Below are positions 17,309-51,298 of a stretch of DNA of 64,000 nt, piece after piece (the first letter of the stretch is position 1; each line of letters begins with the position of its first letter). Source of the DNA: a virus (Duplodnaviria > Heunggongvirae > Uroviricota > Caudoviricetes). The DNA is taken from positions 246,479-310,478 of the IMG/VR virus record IMGVR_UViG_3300021400_000025; one strand, given 5' to 3'. The notes under the pieces are model-generated. The model ran no database searches. It worked only from the letters and a program-made list of their open reading frames with translations, and was not told the origin of the DNA. A program made the translations under genes and the position numbers.

Positions 17309-18511
17309 ATGAGAACATACAAGGTCAAATTGGAATTCGAGAACCAGAATGTCAAGGACTTCTGGAGGAAACGCATTTGCCTTGTACGAGATTGCTATAA
17401 CTACGCTTCCAACATCATATTCAACGAGAAATTGCCCCTTGGACTAAAGTCAGTTCACAATAGGTTGTACTATGAACTCAGGAACAAGTTCAAGGAACTT
17501 CCATCTCAAATGTGCATCCAAGTAGAACGCGCCTTGATTGCGAACTACAAGTCTATTCGTTCTAATGGACACAAGATTGACAAGCCAATTCAGATGAAGC
17601 ACCCTTCAATCCAATTGGACAAGCGTTTGTTCTCAAATCTCACAAGAGAGTCTTTCAAGTTGAGCAATGGAGATGGGAACAACAGGTCGATTGTCAAGTT
17701 CGTCACATACCCCAAGTTCGACCAATTGGCTGAGATGTACAAGATGTGTGATCCAAAGCTGACATACAACGATGATACTGGTGTGTTCTATGCTTGTATT
17801 CCATTCTTGGACATCCCACCTACTCCGCACGAGGAAAGTTATATTGGAATGGATTTGGGAATGAAGAGGATTGCCACCTTGTCTGATGGAACAGCGTACT
17901 CTGACAAGAAGTACCTTGCGAATAGGAGAAGGATACGTCACAACAAGAGGATATTGCAATCCAAGAAGCACTCGCATTCTGCAAGAACCAAATTGAAGAA
18001 ACTTCGCAGAAAGGAAGCCAATGTCTCAAAGAACATGTGCCATCATCTGGCAAACGAGATATTGAAACACGATGGTTCTGTTATAGTGATGGAGGATTTG
18101 ACCAAGGTAAAGCAATCTACTTCCAAGACAAGGGATGGTTTCAAGAGAAATCGTCACAACAACGCAATCTCTCAGGTTCCGTTCTATTTGATAAGACAGA
18201 TTTTGACCTACAAGGCACTACTCAAGGGAAAGCGAGTAGAAACAGTTTCGCCCGAATACACATCCAGACAGGATTGCAGAACGCAATCTGGAGTTGGATG
18301 CAAACGTCAAGGGTGTAGGTTCTATACGAAAGATGGTATGGTGTTCGATGCAGATTGGAATGCTGCAATCAATATCATGAATCGGTATAAACACTCCACT
18401 TCGTTTAGTTTGCCTATTGACGGCAAGTTGAACTTGGTGGACAGGCCACTTCAACAGGCCAATAGTTCTATGAGCAATCACAGAGCAATCTCAACGGCTA
18501 AAGACCGTTGA
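17309..18511 (+). CDS. tnpB: RNA-guided endonuclease TnpB
   Basis: MRTYKVKLEF... 400 aa. RuvC motifs IGMDLGMKRIATLSDG, VIVMEDL, VSPEYTSR and DADWNAAINI are all present. Confidence 0.9.
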   Translation: MRTYKVKLEFENQNVKDFWRKRICLVRDCYNYASNIIFNEKLPLGLKSVHNRLYYELRNKFKELPSQMCIQVERALIANYKSIRSNGHKIDKPIQMKHPSIQLDKRLFSNLTRESFKLSNGDGNNRSIVKFVTYPKFDQLAEMYKMCDPKLTYNDDTGVFYACIPFLDIPPTPHEESYIGMDLGMKRIATLSDGTAYSDKKYLANRRRIRHNKRILQSKKHSHSARTKLKKLRRKEANVSKNMCHHLANEILKHDGSVIVMEDLTKVKQSTSKTRDGFKRNRHNNAISQVPFYLIRQILTYKALLKGKRVETVSPEYTSRQDCRTQSGVGCKRQGCRFYTKDGMVFDADWNAAINIMNRYKHSTSFSLPIDGKLNLVDRPLQQANSSMSNHRAISTAKDR

Positions 18512-18521
18512 GTAAGTTGAA

Positions 18522-18686
18522 TTATGAATTTCTCCAGTTCTTGTCAACCACAACCATCCCCGTTATTGGCTCATCACCATGCTCCTTGACCCACATGTTT
18601 ACTGCTTCAACCACAGTGGGAGCATCATACTCCTCTATGCCCTCTTCATCATCGTCGTTGTATCTGAATCCAATTCTTCCATTCAT
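18522..18686 (-). CDS. small hypothetical protein
   Basis: MNGRIGFRY...; ATGA overlap with the PEP-CTERM gene. Confidence 0.55.
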   Translation of the reverse strand: MNGRIGFRYNDDDEEGIEEYDAPTVVEAVNMWVKEHGDEPITGMVVVDKNWRNS

Positions 18687-19315
18687 GATATTGCATGTGC
18701 CTTTCGTTTCAGCATGAGAACGCCAAATCCAATTATACATAGAAGGGATGTGGATGGTTCTGGAACAGAATGATATGACATTGGCTTCCAATCAGTAACT
18801 GGTGGGTTCAGGTCAAATGTCGGATACATATGCGCCATAACTTGCTCATATGTGTATTTGTCGGATTCAGCCAAAACTTGAAATGCTCCAGACATATATG
18901 TATCGTCATCCCAGTCCATTCTGCCAAGTTCAATTGAGAACAAGGCTTCCATCCCAAGTTCGGTTGGAACATGAGATTGTTGATAATCTATGCCATAGTA
19001 ACCACTTCCTGAATCTCCTACCCAAACACCTAAGTGTCCACCACCAACATCCAATTCATATGCGCTTGTATCTTCGTTGTACTAATAGTTGTCAAGATAT
19101 ATCGGAGAAGTCAATCCTCCCCCACTTATCTTCACCCTTGCTGCTGGATTATGCAAATCATCATCTGGAACAGGTGAAAGAAACGTATATACAGATGATT
19201 CTCCATCAACTGTGGCATCACCATCAACTGTCCACAACAAAACATCTCCGCTTCCATTCAAGAAAGCGAGGCATGCAATCAATATGGCAACAAGTCTCTT
19301 CTTCATCATAATCAA
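18683..19315 (-). CDS. PEP-CTERM sorting-domain surface protein; one in-frame TAG (19082)
   Basis: Signal peptide (MKKRLVAILIACLAFL) in ORF 19082-19315 and VPEPSTSLLCIIGFGVLMLKRK in ORF 18683-19054. The two ORFs share a frame and join through TAG. Confidence 0.85.
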
Positions 19316-19648: not shown

Positions 19649-20227
19649 TCAATCGTCTCTGTACAGCTTGAACTTCTTGCTGATCTTGAATGCATCCTCG
19701 TCTGGCAATGGCTTGAACCATGCTCCAATCGTTGTAGTGCCATCTTCGTTCTCGGGCGTCAAGTCAGTAAGGCACTTGTCGTTGATGTAGCCCCAATCAG
19801 TTCCCTCAACAAGCCCCAATTCCTGCACAACTGGCTCAATCTTCGTCTTCAAGTTGTTCAGGTTCCTGGCTTCGCAGATGGTCTTCGTGAAGATGTCGTT
19901 CACATAATCTTCCCAAATGTCCTTTGGGATCTCCAATGTCACCGTAACGGAATGCCTTGGATTCTCCCTCAACGTGGTGAAGGTGGTCTCCCCCTTGTCA
20001 TAAGCCTCCTTTGACAGCCTGAACAATTCAGGGTGCCTGTAAAGAGCGGGTCCAGACTTCCCATTCCCATAGTTCTCCCATGCTGGCAACGTCATGAACT
20101 CGTTGTCAATCACAGTGGACGACTTCATCAGATTCGTCCAATAAGCCTCGGCCAAATGTGCCAGCATCGCTCCCATCTTCCCTGGCTTCAGATGCAGGTC
20201 TTTCCTTATCACGAACACTCTTCTCAT
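19649..20227 (-). CDS. pth2: peptidyl-tRNA hydrolase, PTH2 family
   Basis: VFVIRKDLHLKPGK..A..AH...FTKTIC...INDKCLT...GTTT....P......I...KLY. Confidence 0.75.
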   Translation of the reverse strand: MRRVFVIRKDLHLKPGKMGAMLAHLAEAYWTNLMKSSTVIDNEFMTLPAWENYGNGKSGPALYRHPELFRLSKEAYDKGETTFTTLRENPRHSVTVTLEIPKDIWEDYVNDIFTKTICEARNLNNLKTKIEPVVQELGLVEGTDWGYINDKCLTDLTPENEDGTTTIGAWFKPLPDEDAFKISKKFKLYRDD

Positions 20228-21036: not shown

Positions 21037-22014
21037 TCACAAGTCATCCTTGCCAATGCAAAGATTGTCGTCAAATGCGCATTTGCCCTCGATGAAGTCA
21101 TGATACTGCTTGTGGATGAAGTATATCTTCTTCTCAGGATGTTGTTCGACAACCAATCTCATCTTCTCTCTATCTGAATCTGGATATCCACCCTTGACTT
21201 CAACATAGATGTCTCTGTCTGGAATATATAGGTCAGGAATATAGTTGTGCCAATAGTCCTTGAAATACTTGATTGGAGCAGCTTTCACCCACAATATGCC
21301 AAGTGCGTTCAACCTCAATGCCACATTCTCCTCCCAATGTCCCCGAACAGAGAATTCCTTGCCCTCTATGTTCTTTACTTTGTACCACTTCACCTTCACA
21401 TGCTCCTTATTGAGGTACTGGTTCATGACTTGTTCAGCACGTTTGGCAGAGATTTTTTGGCGGGTTTCAAGAGTGTGCTTGTGAGACACAACTGATATAT
21501 GTATCTCTCCCCTTGCATATTTTTCTGAGAATTTTCTTCCTTGTCTCTTGTGCATTTCATCGTGTTCCGCCTTATTTGGATGATTAGGGCAATTAACCAT
21601 ATGTCCACCAGCTCCTCTACCACTATCAAATTCTTTCCCACAATAACGACAAACATATTTCCCATCATCTGTAATAATACATCCACTATGTACAACTCCA
21701 TGTACATTAGCCATATGTTTTTTCAGTTGATTGCGTGTATCTAATATCATTCCACACAATTTACACTTCCAAGTTCCATACGGAGATTTTGCATGGACTT
21801 TACCTTCTGCCCTCAATTTGTCAAGATGAGCCTTGACTTTTGGATTATTTGCGCCTCTATTTTTACTCGCAATATATTCAATCTTACATTCCTTTGAGCA
21901 AAATCTTCCTGAGCCATAGGTGTGGTCATGTTCTTTTCCACAGTATTCACAAGGCTTGTCCTTGTTCGCAAGGCGTTTCTATGCCATTGCTTTACGATAA
22001 CGTTCTTTGTTCAT
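21037..22014 (-). CDS. zinc-finger PD-(D/E)xK endonuclease (homing-endonuclease-like); in-frame TAG at codon 12 (21979)
   Basis: Extension gives MNKERYRKAMA*KRLANKDKPCEYCGKEHDHTYGSGRFCSKEC, then two C2H2/C2HC fingers, NUMOD-like HKHTLETRQKIS and YIPDLYIPDRDIYVEVKG. Confidence 0.75.
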
Positions 22015-22090
22015 ATTATTTTTACCTTTTTGTTAACGGAGTCACCCCACGTGACTTCGCATTATCTATTTACAATTATACGATTTTTTA

Positions 22091-22130
22091 GCAAAAGAAA
22101 GCCATATAGGCGTGGGGCCTATACGGCTTT
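22091..22130 (-). terminator. intrinsic terminator downstream of the suppressor tRNA
   Basis: 14-bp stem AAAGCCGTATAGGC/GCCTATATGGCTTT with a 5-nt loop, followed by CTTTT. Confidence 0.7.
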
Positions 22131-22135
22131 ACGGG

Positions 22136-22208
22136 CTGCCCGTGAAGGAGTCGAACCTTCCCCCCAGGTTTTAGAGACCTGTGCGCGAGACCGGCACGCA
22201 GACGGGCT
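22136..22208 (-). tRNA. amber suppressor tRNA, anticodon CUA (probably Gln-accepting); CCA not encoded
   Basis: Minus strand: AGCCCGT CT GCGT GCCGGTCTC GCGC A CAGGT CTCTAAA ACCTG GGGG GAAGG TTCGACT CCTTC ACGGGCA G. Complete cloverleaf; anticodon at 22172-22174. Confidence 0.9.
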
Positions 22209-22286
22209 GTTGAAACTTGTGTCTCGTTTCTCTCGTCACATTCAATTATACAAAAAATGGTTGGAACTTTCGCATGAACCAACCAA

Positions 22287-25200
22287 TTATTCGTCGCCCA
22301 AATCTATGCTGTCGGGATCGGACACAACAACTGTGTCTCCTCCTCCACCACCACTCTGGTTGTTTATTGCAAGCACTGAACCCACTGGTATCTTGTTCAC
22401 CTCGTCTACATATCCCCTCAGACTTCCATGCAATCCAATGGCTGTGGTCTTCACCTCCTCGAATGTCTTGGGCGACAACTTGTCTCCACGAATCAAGGAC
22501 AATTTCAACTCCCTTTCCTCTCTTGGCAACTGGGCTATTCTGTTCTCGGCCTCCTGCTTCAGGTTCTTCACATCGTCTCCAAGCGACTTCAACTCCTCGT
22601 CAGTGACCTTTCCTGGATCAGCCACCATCTTCTCCAATATCGTCTCATATCTTTCCTCTTGCTTCCGTATTGCCTCCATCTGCTTGATCTTCGCCTATGC
22701 GATTGCCAGTTCCTCTCTGCGCTTGGCTTCCTCCTTCAACCTCTTCTCCTCTTCCTCTGCCTTGCGCTTCTTCTCCTCTTCTTCCTTTCTTCTGCGCTCT
22801 TCCTCCACCTTGCGCCGCTCTTCCTCAATCTCCTTTGAGGTCTTGGGTGGTGGTTCAAGAACCTTCGTGTTGGCAGATGGGTTCTTCACTATGGTGTCCC
22901 CTTGGTTTTTCTACTGTCTCTTCCTCAGAATGCGCTCGTCCTTCTCCTTCAAGAAGCCAGCGTAGAACTTCTCCAATTGCCGCTTGAATGTCAGACTGCC
23001 TGTGGCTTTCGCCTCCATCGTCACTGGCCCATGCAGTTTCCTCAGATATTCAAGGTTCTTGTCCAGTTCCTGGTCGGACATCTCCCCCATCTTCTTCCAT
23101 AGAGCCTGTTGGCTCTTCAATATCTTCTGCCTTTGCTCTGGAGTGGGAATGCCCAGCTTGTGGCGATACATCCTCAATTTGGTGAGCTGTCCACCCACTG
23201 CGTTGGGGAAATCCACCAGCTTCACCTTCATATGGGGGAACCTGAGGTATTTGCGCATGAAATCCACTATGGCCGCGCCTTGCAGGGATATATGCAATTT
23301 GATGATTGCGGTCTTCAACGCCTTGTCGGTGTTCTCAGTCCTATATGTCATGTCGAGACCAAGAAACCTCTCCACCCTGTTCCACAATGGGATGACCTTC
23401 AACGCGAAATATTCAAGGAAGGATTGGGCAAATCCAGCGAGGGCATATTTGTCGTCCTTGAGCATGGACCATTTGTAGCCATGTGTGTTCGTCTGGAGGA
23501 AATAGTAGGAAATCAAGTCATGCAGGGAAGATGCGTCCCCATCCTTGTCCTTGGCTGTGTCCAGTGCATAATGATCCTTCAACCAGTCAAGAAGGGGGAT
23601 TGCGGACAATGCGGTGTTCGCTATCTGCCCTTGCTTGAACAGACTCAGCACTCCACCATCAATCATCCAATTGCGCACATCGCCATATTTCAACCCAAAA
23701 GCCTCGAACTTCTTCAACCTATTGAGACGAGCCAGACCCTGGGCGAAACGCTTCGCCTTTCTTGCGGCATTCATCCCCTTGGTGAACCATCTCTTGCCGA
23801 ACCAGGCGTTCTCGTCCACCTCCTCTGCGTCTTTGTTGGCGTTTCTGTCGTATTTCAGAACATCTTGGATTGGTCGAACGATCAATTTCTTCACCCCATG
23901 CACCGCAGCAGCTGCCACAGCCATGCCTACCGGGGAGAGAACAACACTGCCCAGCCCTATCGCCAAGCCCATCAATGCCCTCTTTCCCCATTTGCCCCAG
24001 TCTATTTTGTCAATCTTCTTGGCATGTTCAAGGTTGTTGTCTTTGCTGGCCACCTCCCCCTTTCTGAACTTCTCCAGGAAAATCTGGAACCTGTCCTTGT
24101 AGATGACATCATCAGGATTATCGTAGTAGCCAATGGACTGCTTCTTCGTGATGAAGTTCCATTGGTTCCAATACTCGGAGTATTTTTGGAATTTGCCCAG
24201 AGCCTCCTTGTCATCCTTTGCCGTGGACAACGATTCCATGATTTCAGCGTAGATGCTTCTGATTGCCTTCGCCCTTTGAAGTTCATATCCAAGGGGGTTC
24301 GCTATGACCCTGACTCCATTCTGAATCCATTGGAACGGCATGTAGCCAATTGAACCCTTTTCAGGCTCCGGATAGGGTTCGCCAATCTTGACGTCTAGGG
24401 CGTTGTGGATTGCCTCGAATGGCTTGGTTGGAATGATTGACATCAAGTCGCTTTGCAGAACACGATACCCTGGATTCCATCCTGCCACTGGATCATACAA
24501 TTTGCCCTTGACGCCTGCGAATCTATTGGCCTTGCTGAGCTTGTCTATGTATGCGTCCAACTTCCCAATCTCTGGCATGATTGAATTGGCGAACGTCTGC
24601 TGTCTGATTTTCATGCCATATGCGCGACGGGAGGTGACGTATGCATCAACGCCATATTTCTCCTTAAGTTCCTGTCTGCGTTCCCAATAAGTCTTGCTAT
24701 GTACGTATGTCCTGTCCCACCTGTCCATGTCGTATTGGTTCAGGGTGGCTATGTATTTGGTGGTGTCGCGCTATATTCTGGAAACGATGTCGTTCTCATT
24801 GTTCGCAATCCAGCGCTTCTCCTGCTCCTTCTTGACCTTCTCGTTGGAATTCTCCAAATCTTGTTTCTGCACATCCTTCGCTGAATCAAAGTTCTAATGC
24901 ATCCTTGGTGGAACCTGGCGCATGATGGCCCCTTGTGGAGGACGTTGACCCTTCCCAGGCCAATTCGGCGTCTGAAGCCCTGGAATTACCGCCATCTGCC
25001 CCTTGAACGCCTTGACCCCAGATGACGCCTGGGCGATGTTGATCCTCAGACTCTTCAACGCTGCAGTGGTGTTCGCCATCTGACCACTCTTGCTCTGGGC
25101 GTATTGGAGTTCCTGGTTCTTCTAGTGCTTGGACCAGAGCAGCATCACCTCTGTGGCAATCATCGTCACAATGGAGGGGATCAACTTGACTATGAACATC

Positions 25201-27392
25201 GCCACAGTGCCTGCGCCTGGTGCGATGAAGTTCACCACCATGCATATGGCGTTGACAATCATCCCAAGTCCCTTCTTCGCCAACCCTATGAGATATGCGA
25301 AAACTATTCTCCGAAGAGTGTGCTTGACTGACGCCCAATCCTTGAAGATGCCATTCTTGCCAAACAACTTCTTCTTGATGCCAGAGAAGAACAACTTCAA
25401 CCTGTCTATCCAGTTGCCTATCCCAGATTTGAAGAAGTTCTTGATTCCAATCGCAAACGCCTTTATGCCAGCCCAATTGGGGATCTCGAACCCAAGAATG
25501 GTCATCTTGGAGCCATCGGACTTGGGCATGTACGCAGATTTCCATTTTTGCCAGCCAACTCTGAACAACGCAATCAATATCAACGCGCCCAATGCGATGG
25601 TGGCAATCGCCTTGACTGGATTCAACAATATGCTGAGAAAACCACCTTTCCCTCCTCTACTGGCTTTTTTCTTGAGGTCGGATATGTTGCTCTCTGTCTT
25701 GTTGAGATCCTTGGACATGGTCTCTTCGTCGTCGTCCACCCCTTTCATCTGCTTTTGCACAGCCTTCTGGATTGGTGGATACGCCAGTTGGAACCCTGCC
25801 ATGAACTTCTTGTCCTTGATTGTGCCACCGAGGTTTTCGTTGATTCTGCCCAATGTCTCCTGGACTTTCCTTGACGAGATGTCCTTCTTGTACTTCTGAT
25901 CGTCTGGATTGGGCTGCTTCTCCTTTCCCTTCACTTTGTTCTGGGTCTTTTCCTTGATTGGCAGATTCTTGTTCTTCTTTTTCTTGTCCTTGATGTCCTT
26001 GCCATCATTCTGCTTCTTGGCAGATGGAGAAAGTGGCTTCATCTTGGAGAGGTTCTTGCCTGCAGTCTTGGGCAACTTTGGCATCTTCTTTCCAAGCCCC
26101 TTCATCTTCGTGGGGTTCAGCGTCTTTGACATGGACTTCATCTTGTCCACATTGCCAATAATCTTGGTGTTCTTGCCATCGGCGGAGACCATGGGATCGT
26201 ATGTGGTTCTTCTTGGAAGAAATGCGTTGGACAATCTGCCGCCAAATCCCCTTGCGCCATCAATCTCGGCTCTCTATCCAGACCGCATCTTGAGTTTTGC
26301 CCCTGGAATGGACTTGACTCCTTCAACCAACCCATTCGTCTTTCCACCATCCTTCATTTTGTGCTGATGTTGCCCAGGAAGATGTTGATGTCCACATATG
26401 GGGCATACACACATGCCATTGGGTGAGACCTTCAGTCTGGTTCTTTGTTGGACTGCCTTGGCATTGGACTTGAATCTGGATGAAGATGGAATTGGAGCAG
26501 CAGAAGAAGCTTGTTTGGTGGCGTTCTTTGTGGTGGACAACTATGCCTTCACCTTCTTCATCTTCGCCAGTTGGATTTGCGCCTTGACATCATCTTGAAC
26601 CAACCCATTCAACTTGTCGGCCAAAGTTTTGATGTTGAATTTGTATGGCTTGGCAAGGTTCTGAAGATTCTTGTCCCCCTTGACACTGGCATCCAGTTTC
26701 ACAACATCCTTGTATGCGTTGTTGGAATCCAATTGGTTGAAGACGCCAATCGCATGGCGCAAGGACTCAAGGCTCTCGTCCTCCCATGTGGATTGCCCTT
26801 GATCCATGGTTTCCAGGCGGTTGGATGTGTCGTCGTTCTGCTGGACAAGTCCTTGGGTCAGGCGGTCTATGTCTTGTTGCTGACCCTCGTAGGACTGAAG
26901 ACGAATCATCTTCCTTCGTTCATACTCCCGATTGAGGTTCATCCTCACCTGGAGAATGGAGGTCTGGAGTTCATCCACGAAATCCATGACCACGTCCATG
27001 ATGTTGCAGTCATTGATGTCCAGCTCGCCCTTCACAACCTTCTTGGTCGTTTCTGGAACCAACGCCTTGTCCAGATTCTCAGGAGTCAGCTTGGACTGCT
27101 TGTCCCTCATGTTCTGGGCAATCTTGTTGACAGCATCCCCATCTTGTATTATCCGAAGGAAATCGTTGTTGAGGGAACGGTAGATCGTGCGCAGAAGGAT
27201 CTCGGAATTCGCACCTTGTCCAATCAAAGCCCCTTTGGTGAAGGTCTCGAACAAGGTGGTCATGTTGTTGTACAATTCCTCCATGTGCGCCGTGGAGGAC
27301 ACCTTCTCCACAGCGCCTGCGAAGGGACTGAAATTCGACATCGCAGATTGAAACACCTTCTGCGTGTCCTATGTCTTTGGTTGAGCAGCCAT
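22287..27392 (-). CDS. 1701-aa membrane-associated, helical virion-like protein (tape-measure-like?); eight in-frame TAG
   Basis: Seven ORF-track fragments share one frame and join through TAG at 27369, 26541, 26274, 25122, 24894, 24771, 22911 and 22695. ATG 27392, TAA 22287. Has hydrophobic segments, a K-rich region and a C-terminal E/K coil. Confidence 0.75.
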
Positions 27393-46462: not shown

Positions 46463-49400
46463 TCATTCAACTGGCGCATTGACGTTCTGCACTTCCTCAT
46501 TGTATGCCAAGGTGGATGACTGTGACATTTCTTCCATCTTCTGCGCCAACATGAATTCCTTCATGTACTGGACTTCATTGGAGAATGCGCCCAAGAATTG
46601 CTGCAAAGTGGGATTGCTTGCATCGACTCCACTTATCTTCAGTTCAATGATTGCGTCCTTCAACTGCTTGATGCTGGTTATGGGTTCACCCTTGTATTCC
46701 AGACCTGTGTCGCGCAACTTTCCATCATCGTTGTCCATCACCTGGGCATATGCTGCCTTTGTGAGATTGGATTCACTTTTCCAGAACCTGGCCACTATGT
46801 CTTGACGCACCTTCCTCTGCTCCTCTCTGTCCAACTCGGATTTCTGCTCTTGCGCCAATTCCTTCTTCTCATCTTCTCCTCCTCCTTCGGATGTGTTCTC
46901 CTTGGATACATCTGAATCCAGTCTGGTGAACTTCAACGACAACTGGCTTATGAACAGTTCATACAATGTGTTGCCATTCAACATGTTGTCCAACTTGGTG
47001 AAGTCGAATACATCATCGTCGGATAGATGGAAAAGGTTGGTCTTGTTGATGTTGAAGCTCTGGTTCTTGTCCCTTGCGGCGTCAACATCCATTTGAAGAA
47101 GGTTCAGCTTGCGCACAATCTTGTATATGGTGTCAAAGTCATCGCACGAACAATTCTTGAACCACATCATGAGCGTTTCCATCTCCTGCACAACAAAGTC
47201 CAGAACCACCACTCTGAAGAACCAGTCTGGATGGTTGAGGATGCCATACTCGTCAACCTTGCGGAGATCGCGTATCTTCTCCTCGAAGTATCTCTTCTTC
47301 TCCTGGGATGTGAGGAACTGCAATTTGTCCTTCTCATATGAGTTCATTATCTTCTCGTTCCACACTTGTTGGAAGATTCTAGGTGTCACTGTCCGTCTTT
47401 TCACGGACACCGCCTTGTCATGCTCGTCATAGGCGGATTGGAGAAGATCGGTGTCAATCTGAATGGCTTCGTCGGCCAATCCATCGCGCTCCTCCAACAA
47501 ATCATGGATTTCGTCCTGAAGACGAACCTTCTTCACAAGAAGATCATCCCTCTGGGACAAGTTGGTCTCGTTGGACAACTGCTTGTCCAATTCAACCATG
47601 TTGGACACCTTGTTGTCGATGGCAGATTGAACCTTGCGCAAATCACGAAGATTGCGTCCATATTGCTTCACCAGAATCTGTCGGTAGTCTGGCTCTATGG
47701 TGGTGTACAGCTCGTCTGTGGCTGGGGTCTTGTACCACAGGTTGTTGCTTTCCGCGTTGTACAGTCTCTTCAACAACTTCTTCGTCTCGCGCACCGTCCT
47801 CTTGGACTTGCGCATGGTGTTGACAACACTGTCTGTGTTTACGGCCAAATCTCCAAATTGGGACTTGATGCGTTCAAGCCGCTTGTTGTATGTGGCTTCC
47901 AAGAAGTTCTCCTGTACGTTCTGCGTGTCATCCTCGTTGTCCATGTCGTCCATCAAGTCAGAGACTGCCTTGGAGAACATCCTGGTGGTTGGATTGGTTG
48001 GATTAGTGGTTGAATTGGTGGATGGAACGGTTGAAGCTGCGGATTGTTCATTTGTCCCAGAGCCAGGAGTTGCCACATCACCTGCAGTTGAATCTGCAGG
48101 ATTCTTGAAAAGGTTTTTGTATGGTGTTAGATCCGGTTGAAGTCTGCTCTCCTTCCCACCTTCATCCTTCCCATATCCTTCATATCCCGTCATCTTGACA
48201 TAGTATTGGAACACAGAGGAGTTCATGTTGTTGTCAAGACAGCTCTTGAAGGTGATGGAGAGCTTATATCCATCGGGGATGACCTCAGTCTTCTCATCAT
48301 GTGGCTGCTGCATCTGCGCGACTCGGCCATCAGACGACCCTATCCTCCATGTGGCTCCTTGTACGCCCGCATCATCGAAGAACTTGCTTGGTGGATGTCT
48401 GTTCAAGCCAAGTGGAGACAACTCGAAGCTTCCAGTGCACATCAAATGCCGCTGACCTGTTGGAAGCCACAGTTCATACAACGCGCCGGGGAAGTTCATT
48501 ATGGCCTTCTGCATGGAGCGGTTGTTGTGGATGATGGTGTTCACGCACATGTAGTTGTTCCTTGCCTTGAGCGCATTGTCGTTGATTAGCATCAAGTCCA
48601 TCTTGAAAGAGGGCTTCTCTCCCTTTGGACCATTCCACGTTGGCGCTGGGAAAAGGTCTCCAACTGGCCGCGCCATGGACCCAGTGAGTCCTGATGCCAT
48701 GCCACCAATCATCTCCACGACATGCCCCAGACTCTTCCGCAGACCTTGTAGAAATCCACCATTCTCATCTCCCCATTCTGGCTCGTTGGACGATTGGTTG
48801 ATGACGGTTCCCTCATCCACTATGTATGGGAATATGTAGGTGTTGCCATATAGACGTTTCCTCAATCCCACATACAGAATGTATGGCAAATCTATGACTG
48901 CCGCCTGAGGAGTGGGGAATTCCTGGAACACCGACTTAATCTTGTTCATCAATGTGGTGGCCTTGTCCTTGAGGCTTGACGATGTGGTGGATTGCGCATC
49001 CACTTGCGTGTTCTCGGTGGTCGAATCCTCTGGCGAAGTGAATGCTTCCTTCACCAAACCACCAATCTTCTGCACGAAGTTCACCATGGTGTCCACCTGG
49101 TTCTTGAAGAAGAACTCCTTCACCACTATGTACGGCACTTTGTCCAACATGTCATCCATTGAATCCAAAGCCTGGAACGAAGCTGGTGTTATCGCTATCT
49201 GTGGATACTGTTGCTTTGCGTCAAATGGTCTGAACGAATATATGGTCCATTCTGAGTTGATGTGTCCATATGGATTGAAGAGCTGTTGGTCGCCATCGCG
49301 CATCAAGAACATCAGATTGTCCTTGGCGGATTTCTCCAATTTCGTGGCAGCAGGCCAGCCATTCCACCCCAAGTACGACTCGTTGGATTCCTTGATGTCC

Positions 49401-51298
49401 ATCTTCGACGAGTACGCCATTGGACTCTCCCATCCCATTGGGGTTGAGACCTCCTCTTCTGGACGGGTGGGCTTGGCGTTTGGCGCTGTGGATGGAGCTG
49501 TGGATGGGGGTGGCTCGTCTGGTTCCTCATTTGTCTCATCTCCCCCTTCTCCTTTTCCTTCACCGCCATCATTATCATTATCTGGATCATCGACACCTTC
49601 TTGTGGGTTGAACACATTCTCCCAGAAGTTCAAATCTTCGGTGGGATCGTATGGCTCATCTTCATCATCTTCTGGAAGTTCCCAGTCCTCGTTCCAGTCC
49701 TCTCCATCTTCAGTCCAATCCTCGTCCCAATTCTCCTCGTCCAATTCGTTCTCTGCGTCATCAACCTCCTCCATCAATTCCTGCATGTCGTCGTCATACT
49801 CCTCTATGACCCCATCCACATCGTCCATTGTGTCGCCAAACAAATCCTCTGCGGAATCAGAAGCAGAATCCATCAATCCATCTGCGATGTTGGACATCAT
49901 GTCCATTGCTCCTTCGGCGAGGCCAACCGCAGTGTCCATCACCGCACCTGCCAAATCTCCTGTGGCCGACAAGGCATCTCCTGCGAAATCAGCAAGTCCT
50001 TGCGCAACATCCCCCGCGCCCTCAACCGCACCTGACGCCAAATCCCCTATGGTGTCCATCAGAGAGCCACCAATGTCCGTGGCAGCATCAAGCACAGAGC
50101 CAGCCATGCCCGACGCGTTGTCAAGTATGCTGCTTCCAACAGAAGACGCACCATCCAACAACGAACCAACAGTGTTGAAGGTGGCATCTGCCATGCCAGA
50201 CGCAACTTGAGAGGCTGAATCCAAAATGCCACTGGCAAGTGATCCACAGTTGTCCGCCAATCCTCCCAGAAGATTGGTTGCCGCGCCAACAGCGCTCTAG
50301 CCAGTGGCCAACGCAGACTTGCCTGCATCCACCGCCTGCCCAAACAACCCACCTGCGCCTGCTTCGCCTGTCCCAGTAGGAGCCTTTGAGCCGAATATCC
50401 CCTGCATCAAGCCGGATGCGGCATCTCCAACAAGGTTGGACGCGACATTCGCAGCCTGACCCACCAACCCCTTCGCCAAGCCAGTGGCTGTGGAAAGCAA
50501 CCCACCTTGTCCATTGCTCCCATTCACAATCTGATTCACGCCAGAAAGAAGACTGGATGCCGTGGATTGCGCCCCTGACATCAAGGAGTTCGCGCATGAA
50601 GTTGCTTGGTTCAACATCCCTGAAATCCCCCCACTTGAGGAACCTTTGCCACCACCCAATATGTTGGAAGTCAGATTCTTGGCGATGGAGGTTCCTGCGC
50701 CACATATTGTGTTCATCGCGCCAGATACCGTGGATGTGAGGGAACTTGCCATGTTGGAGGCTTGCCCCAAGACAGAACTTGATGTGCTTTTCGTGGTGTC
50801 GATCAGATTCTTCGCAGTGTTGTTGGTGGTGTTCAACAAGGACTTCGATACCCCACTGGCAGTGGTCATCATTGTCTTCGCCACAGAAGATGTTGTCCCC
50901 AAAATGCTTGTGGTTATTGGAACTGCAGTTCCTGCGATTGAAGACACGCTGTTTGCCAGACCATGTCCAATGCTCCCCACAAGATTCCCCAATGAGCTTT
51001 TGGATGCGCTGGTGGTTCCATCCCTCTCAATTTCAGCCTTGGCGAGAAGAGAGTCCTTCCGCATCGCCATCAACCTTCCAGATGCTTCCTGGGCAGTGCG
51101 CATCATCTTGCTTGTCTGGCTCTCAACATTGGCAAGCATGTCCAATGCCCCCTTGATTCTGGAATCATCCACATCTGGACTGAAATTCCTGGACAAGATG
51201 CTCTCACGCAACGTCCTCAAGCTCTCAATCTTCTTCTTCGCCTCGTCAAATCTTCTCTGTGTATGCTCTTCTCTCATCTTGCACTCCATATCCATCAA
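46463..51298 (-). CDS. 1611-aa protein: G/S/A/T-rich repeats, acidic tract, possible baseplate/tail-tube-cap (gp48-like) domain, coiled coil; one in-frame TAG (50297)
   Basis: ORFs 50297-51298 and 46463-50260 share a frame. Sits next to gp25. Central domain has F.MDLMLIN...PGALYELW...IPDGYKLSITFKS. Confidence 0.7.

Follow-up and report, generated by a model that had tools for sequence, protein, structure and literature searches.

Gut phages that read TAG as glutamine (code 15) and carry tRNAs with a CUA anticodon are known among crAss-like, Lak, Agate and other phages (bioRxiv 2021.08.26.457843; PMC9523058; PMC13037316), the second of these reports providing proteomic support and the third surveying jumbo phages. 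Two of them detected a suppressor tRNA in just 40-61% of the recoded phages, leaving its charging open (bioRxiv 2021.08.26.457843; PMC13037316). In E. coli, tRNA-Trp given a CUA anticodon is reported to be charged by GlnRS (PMC2965240), and for tRNA-Asn, amber suppressors whose 1-72 pair is weakened are all reported to insert Gln (PMC9976931). Bacterial tRNA-Sec is described as having a core in which G14:C21:U8 and C15:G20a:G48 replace U8:A14 and R15:Y48, C8 being found in the archaeal tRNA-Sec of M. kandleri (PMC3711452), and tRNA-Pyl as being marked by G1-C72 (PMC1851642).

We analysed a CUA tRNA gene, tRNA(CUA), in a 64,000-nt stretch of DNA (the window), positions 246,479 to 310,478 of the IMG/VR record IMGVR_UViG_3300021400_000025, which is a complete genome of 418,068 bp with direct terminal repeats from a gut phage that is T4-like by its capsid, portal, terminase and sheath families. 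tRNA(CUA) is another code-15 suppressor tRNA, with core and slot features that look new. As in the described code-15 phages, a CUA tRNA is accompanied by TAG aligning with Gln, by a bias of TAG towards structural, packaging and lysis genes, by the absence of a detected phage synthetase and by host GlnRS as the proposed charging enzyme; unlike in those phages, the tRNA core appears rebuilt at positions 8, 14, 15, 21 and 48 with an open 1-72 pair, no phage RF2 was found, and the slot holds five apparently exchangeable allele types. The suppressor tRNAs of other phages, read by eye, mostly have U8 and the usual D loop. tRNA(CUA) also resembles the E. coli amber tRNA-Trp and weakened 1-72 suppressors (PMC2965240, PMC9976931) in its Trp-type arm, in U35 and G73, in a first pair that is weak or open and in probable Gln insertion, but is natural, apparently selected and mosaic in its body.

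TAG is a sense codon throughout the genome

Since coding density was indecisive on the code (0.896 with TGA read-through, 0.886 with TAG read-through), we used a test of the codons downstream of each stop. After well-coding segments, the frame stayed open for 40 codons without TAA or TGA at 85% of TAG codons (n = 67), compared with 26% of TGA (n = 194) and 20% of TAA codons (n = 46), and the coding score remained positive downstream of TAG only, not of TGA or TAA. TAG is a sense codon genome-wide, with 213 occurrences in 91 of the 435 called genes.

The residues opposite TAG were counted in alignments of this genome (G000) with two complete relatives (G001 and G002, about 70% protein identity), columns with TAG in both sequences being set aside. 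In 100 columns, Gln was found 54 times, Lys 9, Glu 8 and Trp once, Gln standing opposite this phage's TAG in 26 of 49 columns and opposite the relatives' TAG in 28 of 51. In the alignment controls Gln faced Gln at 72-73% and Trp faced Trp at 92-94%, and Glu stood opposite ordinary Gln at 5-6%. Gln is kept less at TAG columns (54%) than at ordinary Gln columns (72-73%). The pattern argues that TAG stands for Gln in this phage's genes.

TAG is concentrated in late genes. The gene following a TAAATA motif, which we take to be like the T4 late promoter, carries TAG in 46 of 83 cases (p = 3e-15), as against 5 of 50 (p = 0.043) after the phage motif GTATAATT, of which there are 76 sites versus one in the reversed control. 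Terminase contains 12 TAG codons, a single TAG occurs in the portal gene, in one of the sheath genes and in each of two lysis enzyme genes, and 12 of 13 checked replication, transcription and metabolic genes are TAG-free, the exception being a gp46-like gene with one. The major capsid gene and the other sheath gene are exceptions of the opposite kind, having no TAG though they are highly expressed late genes.

Several other genes were noted during this survey. Two of three IS605-type TnpB genes (window 17309-18511; L001:12452-13708; L007:12047-13324) have in-frame TAG (one and five codons) and appear to use the phage code. ORFs of 3779, 2339 and 1610 aa (L016:958-12294, L004:46-7062 and window 46466-51295, respectively) appear whole only with TAG read-through and match protein families little or not at all. 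Genes for NAD salvage (NAD synthase, NAPRTase, PRPP synthetase-like and isochorismatase family) lie at L001:6581-12295, and L015:14393-16846 is the terminase gene, which has a likely intein in addition to its 12 TAG codons.

The tRNA(CUA) gene and its neighbours

The locus contains the following features, in window coordinates.

22136..22208, minus strand: tRNA(CUA), position 1 at 22208 and G73 at 22136; A1.A72, G2-C71, C3-G70 and G73; C8, G14-C21, C15 and G48; anticodon arm of the Trp type, variable loop GGGG (4 nt) and normal T loop
22172..22174, minus strand: anticodon CUA
22133..22135, minus strand: the sequence CCC, 3' of G73
22243..22251, minus strand: promoter-like motif GTATAATTG, of the class preceding mostly TAG-free genes
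22090..22130, minus strand: intrinsic terminator-like hairpin of 14 pairs (22130-22098) with a T run
22287..27392, minus strand: gene of 1701 aa, eight in-frame TAG codons, no Pfam family
21037..22014, minus strand: free-standing zinc-finger / Phage_endo_I endonuclease of 325 aa, TAG at codon 12
19649..20227, minus strand: peptidyl-tRNA hydrolase PTH2, no TAG

The initial annotation had described a cloverleaf with a CUA anticodon, and this was called by ARAGORN at 22133-22209 and matched Rfam RF00005 at 33.2 bits (cut-off 29, E 3e-5). Each of the odd bases that it listed (A1/A72, C8, G14, C15, G48, C21) was present on re-reading the sequence, as were the GGGG variable loop, G73 and an unencoded CCA, G73 being followed by CCC. 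In a fast gathering scan covering the whole window, the gene went undetected. All stems are intact, and the register is fixed by a sister allele (L248) that has the identical A1.A72/G73 end and encodes CCA. Longer D stems were favoured, with energies of -25.4, -27.4 and -28.2 kcal/mol for 4, 5 and 6 bp, so that the 6-bp stem already suggested was the most stable of the three variants; the extension consists of G14-C21 and U9-A26. The z-score of the fold against shuffles was only -0.93, and folding energy by itself is therefore no evidence for the tRNA.

The gene stands alone, 26 kb away from the tRNA cluster, in a genome with 33 tRNAs and one tmRNA, and it is the only CUA tRNA that ARAGORN found in the complete 418-kb sequence. 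In an outlier test based on an approximate parser, which read 31 of the 32 other ARAGORN tRNAs, U8 and a paired 1-72 were present in all 31; tRNA(CUA) departs from the consensus at five of five core sites, each of the others at two at most. The lack of an encoded CCA is ordinary in this genome (encoded in 20 of the 31, absent in 11). Of the 17 bases of the anticodon arm, 14 agree with the phage's tRNA-Trp, compared with 9 and 5 that agree with its Gln tRNAs, and this Trp-type arm together with G73 is consistent with a Trp-derived suppressor. The cluster itself (L013; 231.5-242.5 kb of G000) comprises 31 tRNAs and the tmRNA, with several unusual T loops and one tRNA-Met with a U1.U72 mismatch.

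tRNA(CUA) shares G14, C21, C15, G48 and an extended D stem with tRNA-Sec, and C8, which stands where the bacterial core has U8, with the tRNA-Sec of M. kandleri; it probably folds like the tRNA-Sec core. Unlike tRNA-Sec, it has CUA instead of UCA, a 7+5 acceptor/T arm instead of one of 13 bp and a 4-nt variable loop, and G20a is missing. A tRNA-Sec identity was rejected in view of the anticodon, the 7+5 arm, the absence of an extra arm and the RF01852 score of 30.2 bits, below the cut-off of 47 and below the scores of the phage's ordinary tRNAs. With tRNA-Pyl the gene shares the CUA anticodon, G73 and the ARAGORN label 'Pyl', which was assigned to every CUA tRNA found by ARAGORN in this study, and it differs in having A1.A72 and in keeping the D-loop GG and a normal T loop. 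This identity was likewise rejected, there being no G1-C72, no PylRS-type gene (PF01409, 0 of 8 records) and Lys opposite TAG in only 9 of 100 columns.

Upstream of the gene, the initial annotation had seen a TG-TATAAT box. The motif is there, but as the phage motif GTATAATT and not as an extended -10: the sigma-70 extended -10 is TGnTATAAT, and here TG touches TATAAT without a spacer. Promoter scoring at the box scored none. The GTATAATTG promoter-like motif stands before all clade CUA alleles, in L248, L249, L256 and L260 by construction, as the pattern search demanded the promoter. Downstream, the predicted terminator was recovered as the 14-pair hairpin at 22130-22098.

The 1701-aa ORF upstream of the tRNA emerges once TAG is read through and marks the upstream side of the tRNA slot in G001, G002, L141 and L256; a peptide-word search with its C-terminus returned zero loci. 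The endonuclease lies downstream of the tRNA in four records and is missing there in four others, the slot endonucleases having TAG at codon 12 or 20. It recalls T4 segB, described as a free-standing endonuclease beside tRNA genes differing between related phages (PMC2330249), but belongs to Phage_endo_I and not to GIY-YIG. By this analogy it is a candidate homing driver, homing itself being a guess. Before the endonuclease start lie a second GTATAATTG overlapping TAAATA (window 22067-22081) and a hairpin (22037-22059), with a weak DUF2815 RNA match (E 1.3). PTH2, reported to be common among jumbo phages (PMC7824862), is found 1.9 kb downstream of tRNA(CUA) and immediately 3' of the CUA tRNA in G002; a functional link between PTH2 and tRNA(CUA) is at most a possibility.

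Allele designs in the tRNA slot

Nine related records contain five CUA tRNA designs, all behind the same early-type promoter motif.

Design A, this tRNA(CUA): G14-C21, C15, G48, C8
Design B, L139, L248 and L260: A1.A72/G73 end as in A, but U8 and A14; T loop of tRNA-Gln(UUG)
Design C, G002 and L141: U1-A72, a large D loop and a degenerate T loop of 8 nt
Design D, G001 and L249: arm of the Trp type, a long variable arm and A73
Design E, L256: long variable arm, A8, degenerate T loop

All nine clade CUA tRNAs share G2-C71, A72, the CUA anticodon and A37, and seven have G73; U1-A72 is found in five of the nine records (three of the five allele types) and in both phage Gln tRNAs. Positions 14 and 21 covary (G-C in A, A-U in D, that is G001 and L249, and G.U in E, that is L256), and among the clade CUA alleles U8 is missing wherever A14 is missing. 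Each of the three complete genomes has one CUA tRNA. Designs C and E, in three of the nine records (G002, L141 and L256), are missed by ARAGORN. Degenerate T loops were seen in the CUA tRNAs of L143 (G002), L141 and L256, that of L141 also having C33.

The acceptor and D stems of tRNA(CUA) match those of L139, an allele with a T loop that in turn matches the phage tRNA-Gln(UUG), and the acceptor end of tRNA(CUA) also resembles another phage's tRNA-Trp (L270). Between tRNA(CUA) and L139 the flanks are close (37/45 upstream, 113/120 downstream) and the interior is divergent (11/20 and 26/40). An unchanged match to tRNA(CUA) was present at depth 60 in run X1, which may be its source. In run X15, a goat gut metagenome from another study, the 73-nt body had no changes while the 45-nt leader had three substitutions and three indels (Fisher, body versus leader: p = 0.053 for substitutions, p = 0.0025 for all events; one contig, depth 4.6), and the upstream flank was of the L139 type. 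Together, the odd allele is real and appears conserved, and it occurs with differing flanks. In L260, the sequence preceding the cassette instead matches this genome around its sheath gene. A tRNA-Gln D-arm-like remnant that lies after the promoter and ahead of the CUA tRNA (L126:1460-1500, in G001; L139:225-260) suggests that the occupant of the slot had been replaced before.

The CUA tRNAs at L145:3951-4040 (G001) and in L249, L256, L262, L263 and L265 have a long variable arm with a Gln(CUG)-like anticodon in its loop, the stems around the loop varying between alleles. Designs A, B and C have no such arm, and TAG nevertheless aligns with Gln in both G000 and G002, so the clade as a whole does not depend on it. 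On a separate and possibly unrelated contig, the CUA tRNA of L263 has C15 with G48, and two others, those of L262 and L265, have A1.C72 with G73.

Wider searches gave little beyond the clade. The promoter-plus-anticodon pattern had 16 metagenome matches, comprising five clade records (one an L139 duplicate) and 11 others without similarity to this genome, which were dismissed as chance. Blast against cultured phages returned weak tRNA-Trp arm matches only (E 0.4), an anticodon-arm scan of viral contigs returned 100 loci, none like tRNA(CUA) beyond the arm, and an exact 20-mer search of metagenome contigs gave no match. A genome found via PTH2 (G013) was rejected as a relative (28 of 435 queries match, 34% GC), with no CUA tRNA in 400 of its 416 kb, and G016 does not cover the slot.

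Charging of the tRNA and competing explanations

The initial annotation had proposed a dedicated phage synthetase and suggested looking for GlnRS/GluRS, CCA-adding enzyme and release-factor genes; the search was run and none was found. Six-frame searches detected no Glu/GlnRS, Trp/TyrRS, Phe/PylRS-type or PCRF family in eight records, three of them complete, and no Asp/Lys/AsnRS, GatB or Thg1 in six records including the same three complete genomes. In this genome, the RF-1 and CCA-adding enzyme families were not found, and Pfam scans of 340 proteins and ORFs revealed neither a synthetase or release factor nor a GatB or CCA-adding enzyme. These scans covered 304 of the 306 called proteins of at least 110 aa; the two remaining called genes and one ORF, all three running across locus borders, are covered by the six-frame searches, as are 11 probably antisense or overlapping frames among 49 additional ORFs of at least 200 aa. 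Many phage proteins are without any Pfam family. As no Thg1 was found, repair of A1 at the 5' end by a phage enzyme is unsupported. Two large proteins (L019:3818-7729 and L019:7837-9705) show nucleotidyltransferase-like motifs by eye, the former with two motif copies and a cytidylyltransferase-like domain, and possibly have a role in RNA end repair.

Gln identity elements are reported to include U35, the discriminator, 1-72, 3-70 and 10-25 (PMC9976931). tRNA(CUA) carries U35, G73, G2-C71, G10-C25 and an open 1-72; by these E. coli rules, which may not be the host's, it appears to have the host identity elements that the tRNA of an orthogonal pair would lack. The earlier objection that C3-G70 does not suit GlnRS fails, because the phage's own tRNA-Gln(CUG) has C3-G70 (with U1-A72 and G2-C71) and this pair varies among the clade's Gln tRNAs (U3-A70 in the phage tRNA-Gln(UUG), U3-A70 or G3-C70 in the relatives). 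The Gln identity that a weak 1-72 pair and G73 had been said to fit, on the other hand, gains support from the alignment of TAG with Gln in 54 of 100 columns, and an open 1-72 combined with U35 is described as a way for ordinary GlnRS to glutaminylate a tRNA (PMC9976931; PMC2965240). The Trp-type arm, U35, G73 and open first pair favour direct charging by host GlnRS. We consider it very likely that UAG is decoded as Gln by tRNA(CUA), and likely that a host enzyme charges it.

Regarding the host, the protein at window 18683-19315, which has one TAG, ends by eye in a PEP-CTERM-like C-terminal sorting signal (PF07589 on 1 of 32 homologues), a hint of a diderm host. A solute-binding protein gave one organism name, Kiritimatiellia, at 41% identity among the 120 matches listed, which is a host hint only, and a host search in five test genomes found nothing.

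In the account that we favour, and regard as reasonably probable as a whole, the only detected CUA tRNA decodes TAG as Gln in late genes and is charged by host GlnRS. The tRNA would be transcribed early, from the GTATAATT motif class of mostly TAG-free genes, as would suit a tRNA made early that allows late genes to be read. Host enzymes would trim it and add CCA, which would need completing after trimming, and host GlnRS would charge it with Gln via U35, G73, G2-C71, G10-C25 and the already open 1-72. It would then compete with host RF1, yielding full-length terminase, portal, tail and lysis proteins late in infection. Against this account, an open 1-72 is reported to contribute to the initiator tRNA's EF-Tu rejection, formylation and Pth resistance (PMC5393177). 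G2-C71/C3-G70 is also initiator-like, and with both features the allele may be inefficient. The core is likely rebuilt and not decayed, a G14-C21 pair that lengthens the D stem replacing the U8.A14.A21 triple and C15 presumably facing G48 much as in tRNA-Sec. The gene would be a mosaic, its acceptor stem and flanks coming from one allele type and its Trp-type anticodon arm and T loop from another, minus the long variable arm of the latter, and the slot would be filled by alleles likely exchanged between related phages. More tentatively, the slot might be swappable, moved by recombination or by the endonuclease, with a body repeatedly rebuilt to escape host tRNA-cutting defences while still a GlnRS substrate.

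Other routes to Gln, or to another residue, are less probable. In an indirect host route, a non-discriminating GluRS would load Glu on the tRNA and GatCAB would amidate it to Gln; U1-A72, reported to be an amidotransferase determinant (PMC9976931), would suit this in five of the nine clade records and in both phage Gln tRNAs, but it is missing from this allele and from the L139 type, which have A1.A72, no phage GatB was found in six records, and Glu opposite TAG (8 of 100) is unenriched relative to the 5-6% at ordinary Gln. We regard this route as unlikely. A tRNA keeping Trp identity, or inserting a mixture of Gln and Trp, is suggested by the Trp-type arm, which is closer to the phage tRNA-Trp (14 of 17 bases) than to the Gln tRNAs (9 and 5), by the Trp elements A1 and G73 and by the weak tRNA-Trp hits that topped the phage-collection matches (E 0.4). 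It is very improbable nonetheless, given that Trp stands opposite TAG in one of 100 columns though Trp columns are 92-94% conserved, that U replaces C35 and that there is no A1-U72 pair.

The unusual core could also mean that the gene is decaying or inefficient, TAG being read by a near-cognate tRNA-Gln(CUG), by the tRNA of a co-infecting phage or through RF1 inhibition. Five of five core sites off consensus, the low Rfam score, the open 1-72 pair and the mere 213 TAG codons that need reading would agree with this. Decay is however improbable in view of the intact stems, the unchanged body beside a differing leader in X15, the compensatory changes at 14:21, the retained promoter and terminator, the absence of a second CUA tRNA by ARAGORN and a terminase that demands 12 read-throughs. 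Finally, a natural orthogonal pair of tRNA(CUA) with a dedicated phage synthetase, the interpretation of the initial annotation, could draw on the non-canonical core, on the many family-less proteins, among which an enzyme of novel fold is conceivable, and on Jade phages, described as having a code-change module with TrpRS (bioRxiv 2021.08.26.457843). It is not supported, and we give it the least credence: no member of four synthetase families was found in the three complete genomes and no synthetase in the 340 Pfam scans, the five very different bodies in the slot have mainly host-type Gln determinants in common, and C3-G70 occurs also in the phage's normal tRNA-Gln(CUG).

In titles and abstract openings, we found no description of this clade, of a phage suppressor with a core of this kind or of a multi-design slot, although survey tables could include these genomes; a tRNA-Sec-like core in a phage CUA tRNA and five CUA designs in one slot look new. 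Because three of the nine clade CUA tRNAs are missed by ARAGORN, 'missing' suppressors in recoded phages can be a detection gap. tRNA(CUA) is no ready orthogonal pair for code expansion; the bases shared by five natural designs in one slot point to the determinants of the host enzyme. If the more tentative view of a swappable, repeatedly rebuilt slot is true, this allele would show that a core of the tRNA-Sec type and an open first pair can serve ordinary elongation, and the clade would hold a natural library of amber tRNA scaffolds, partly missed by standard finders.
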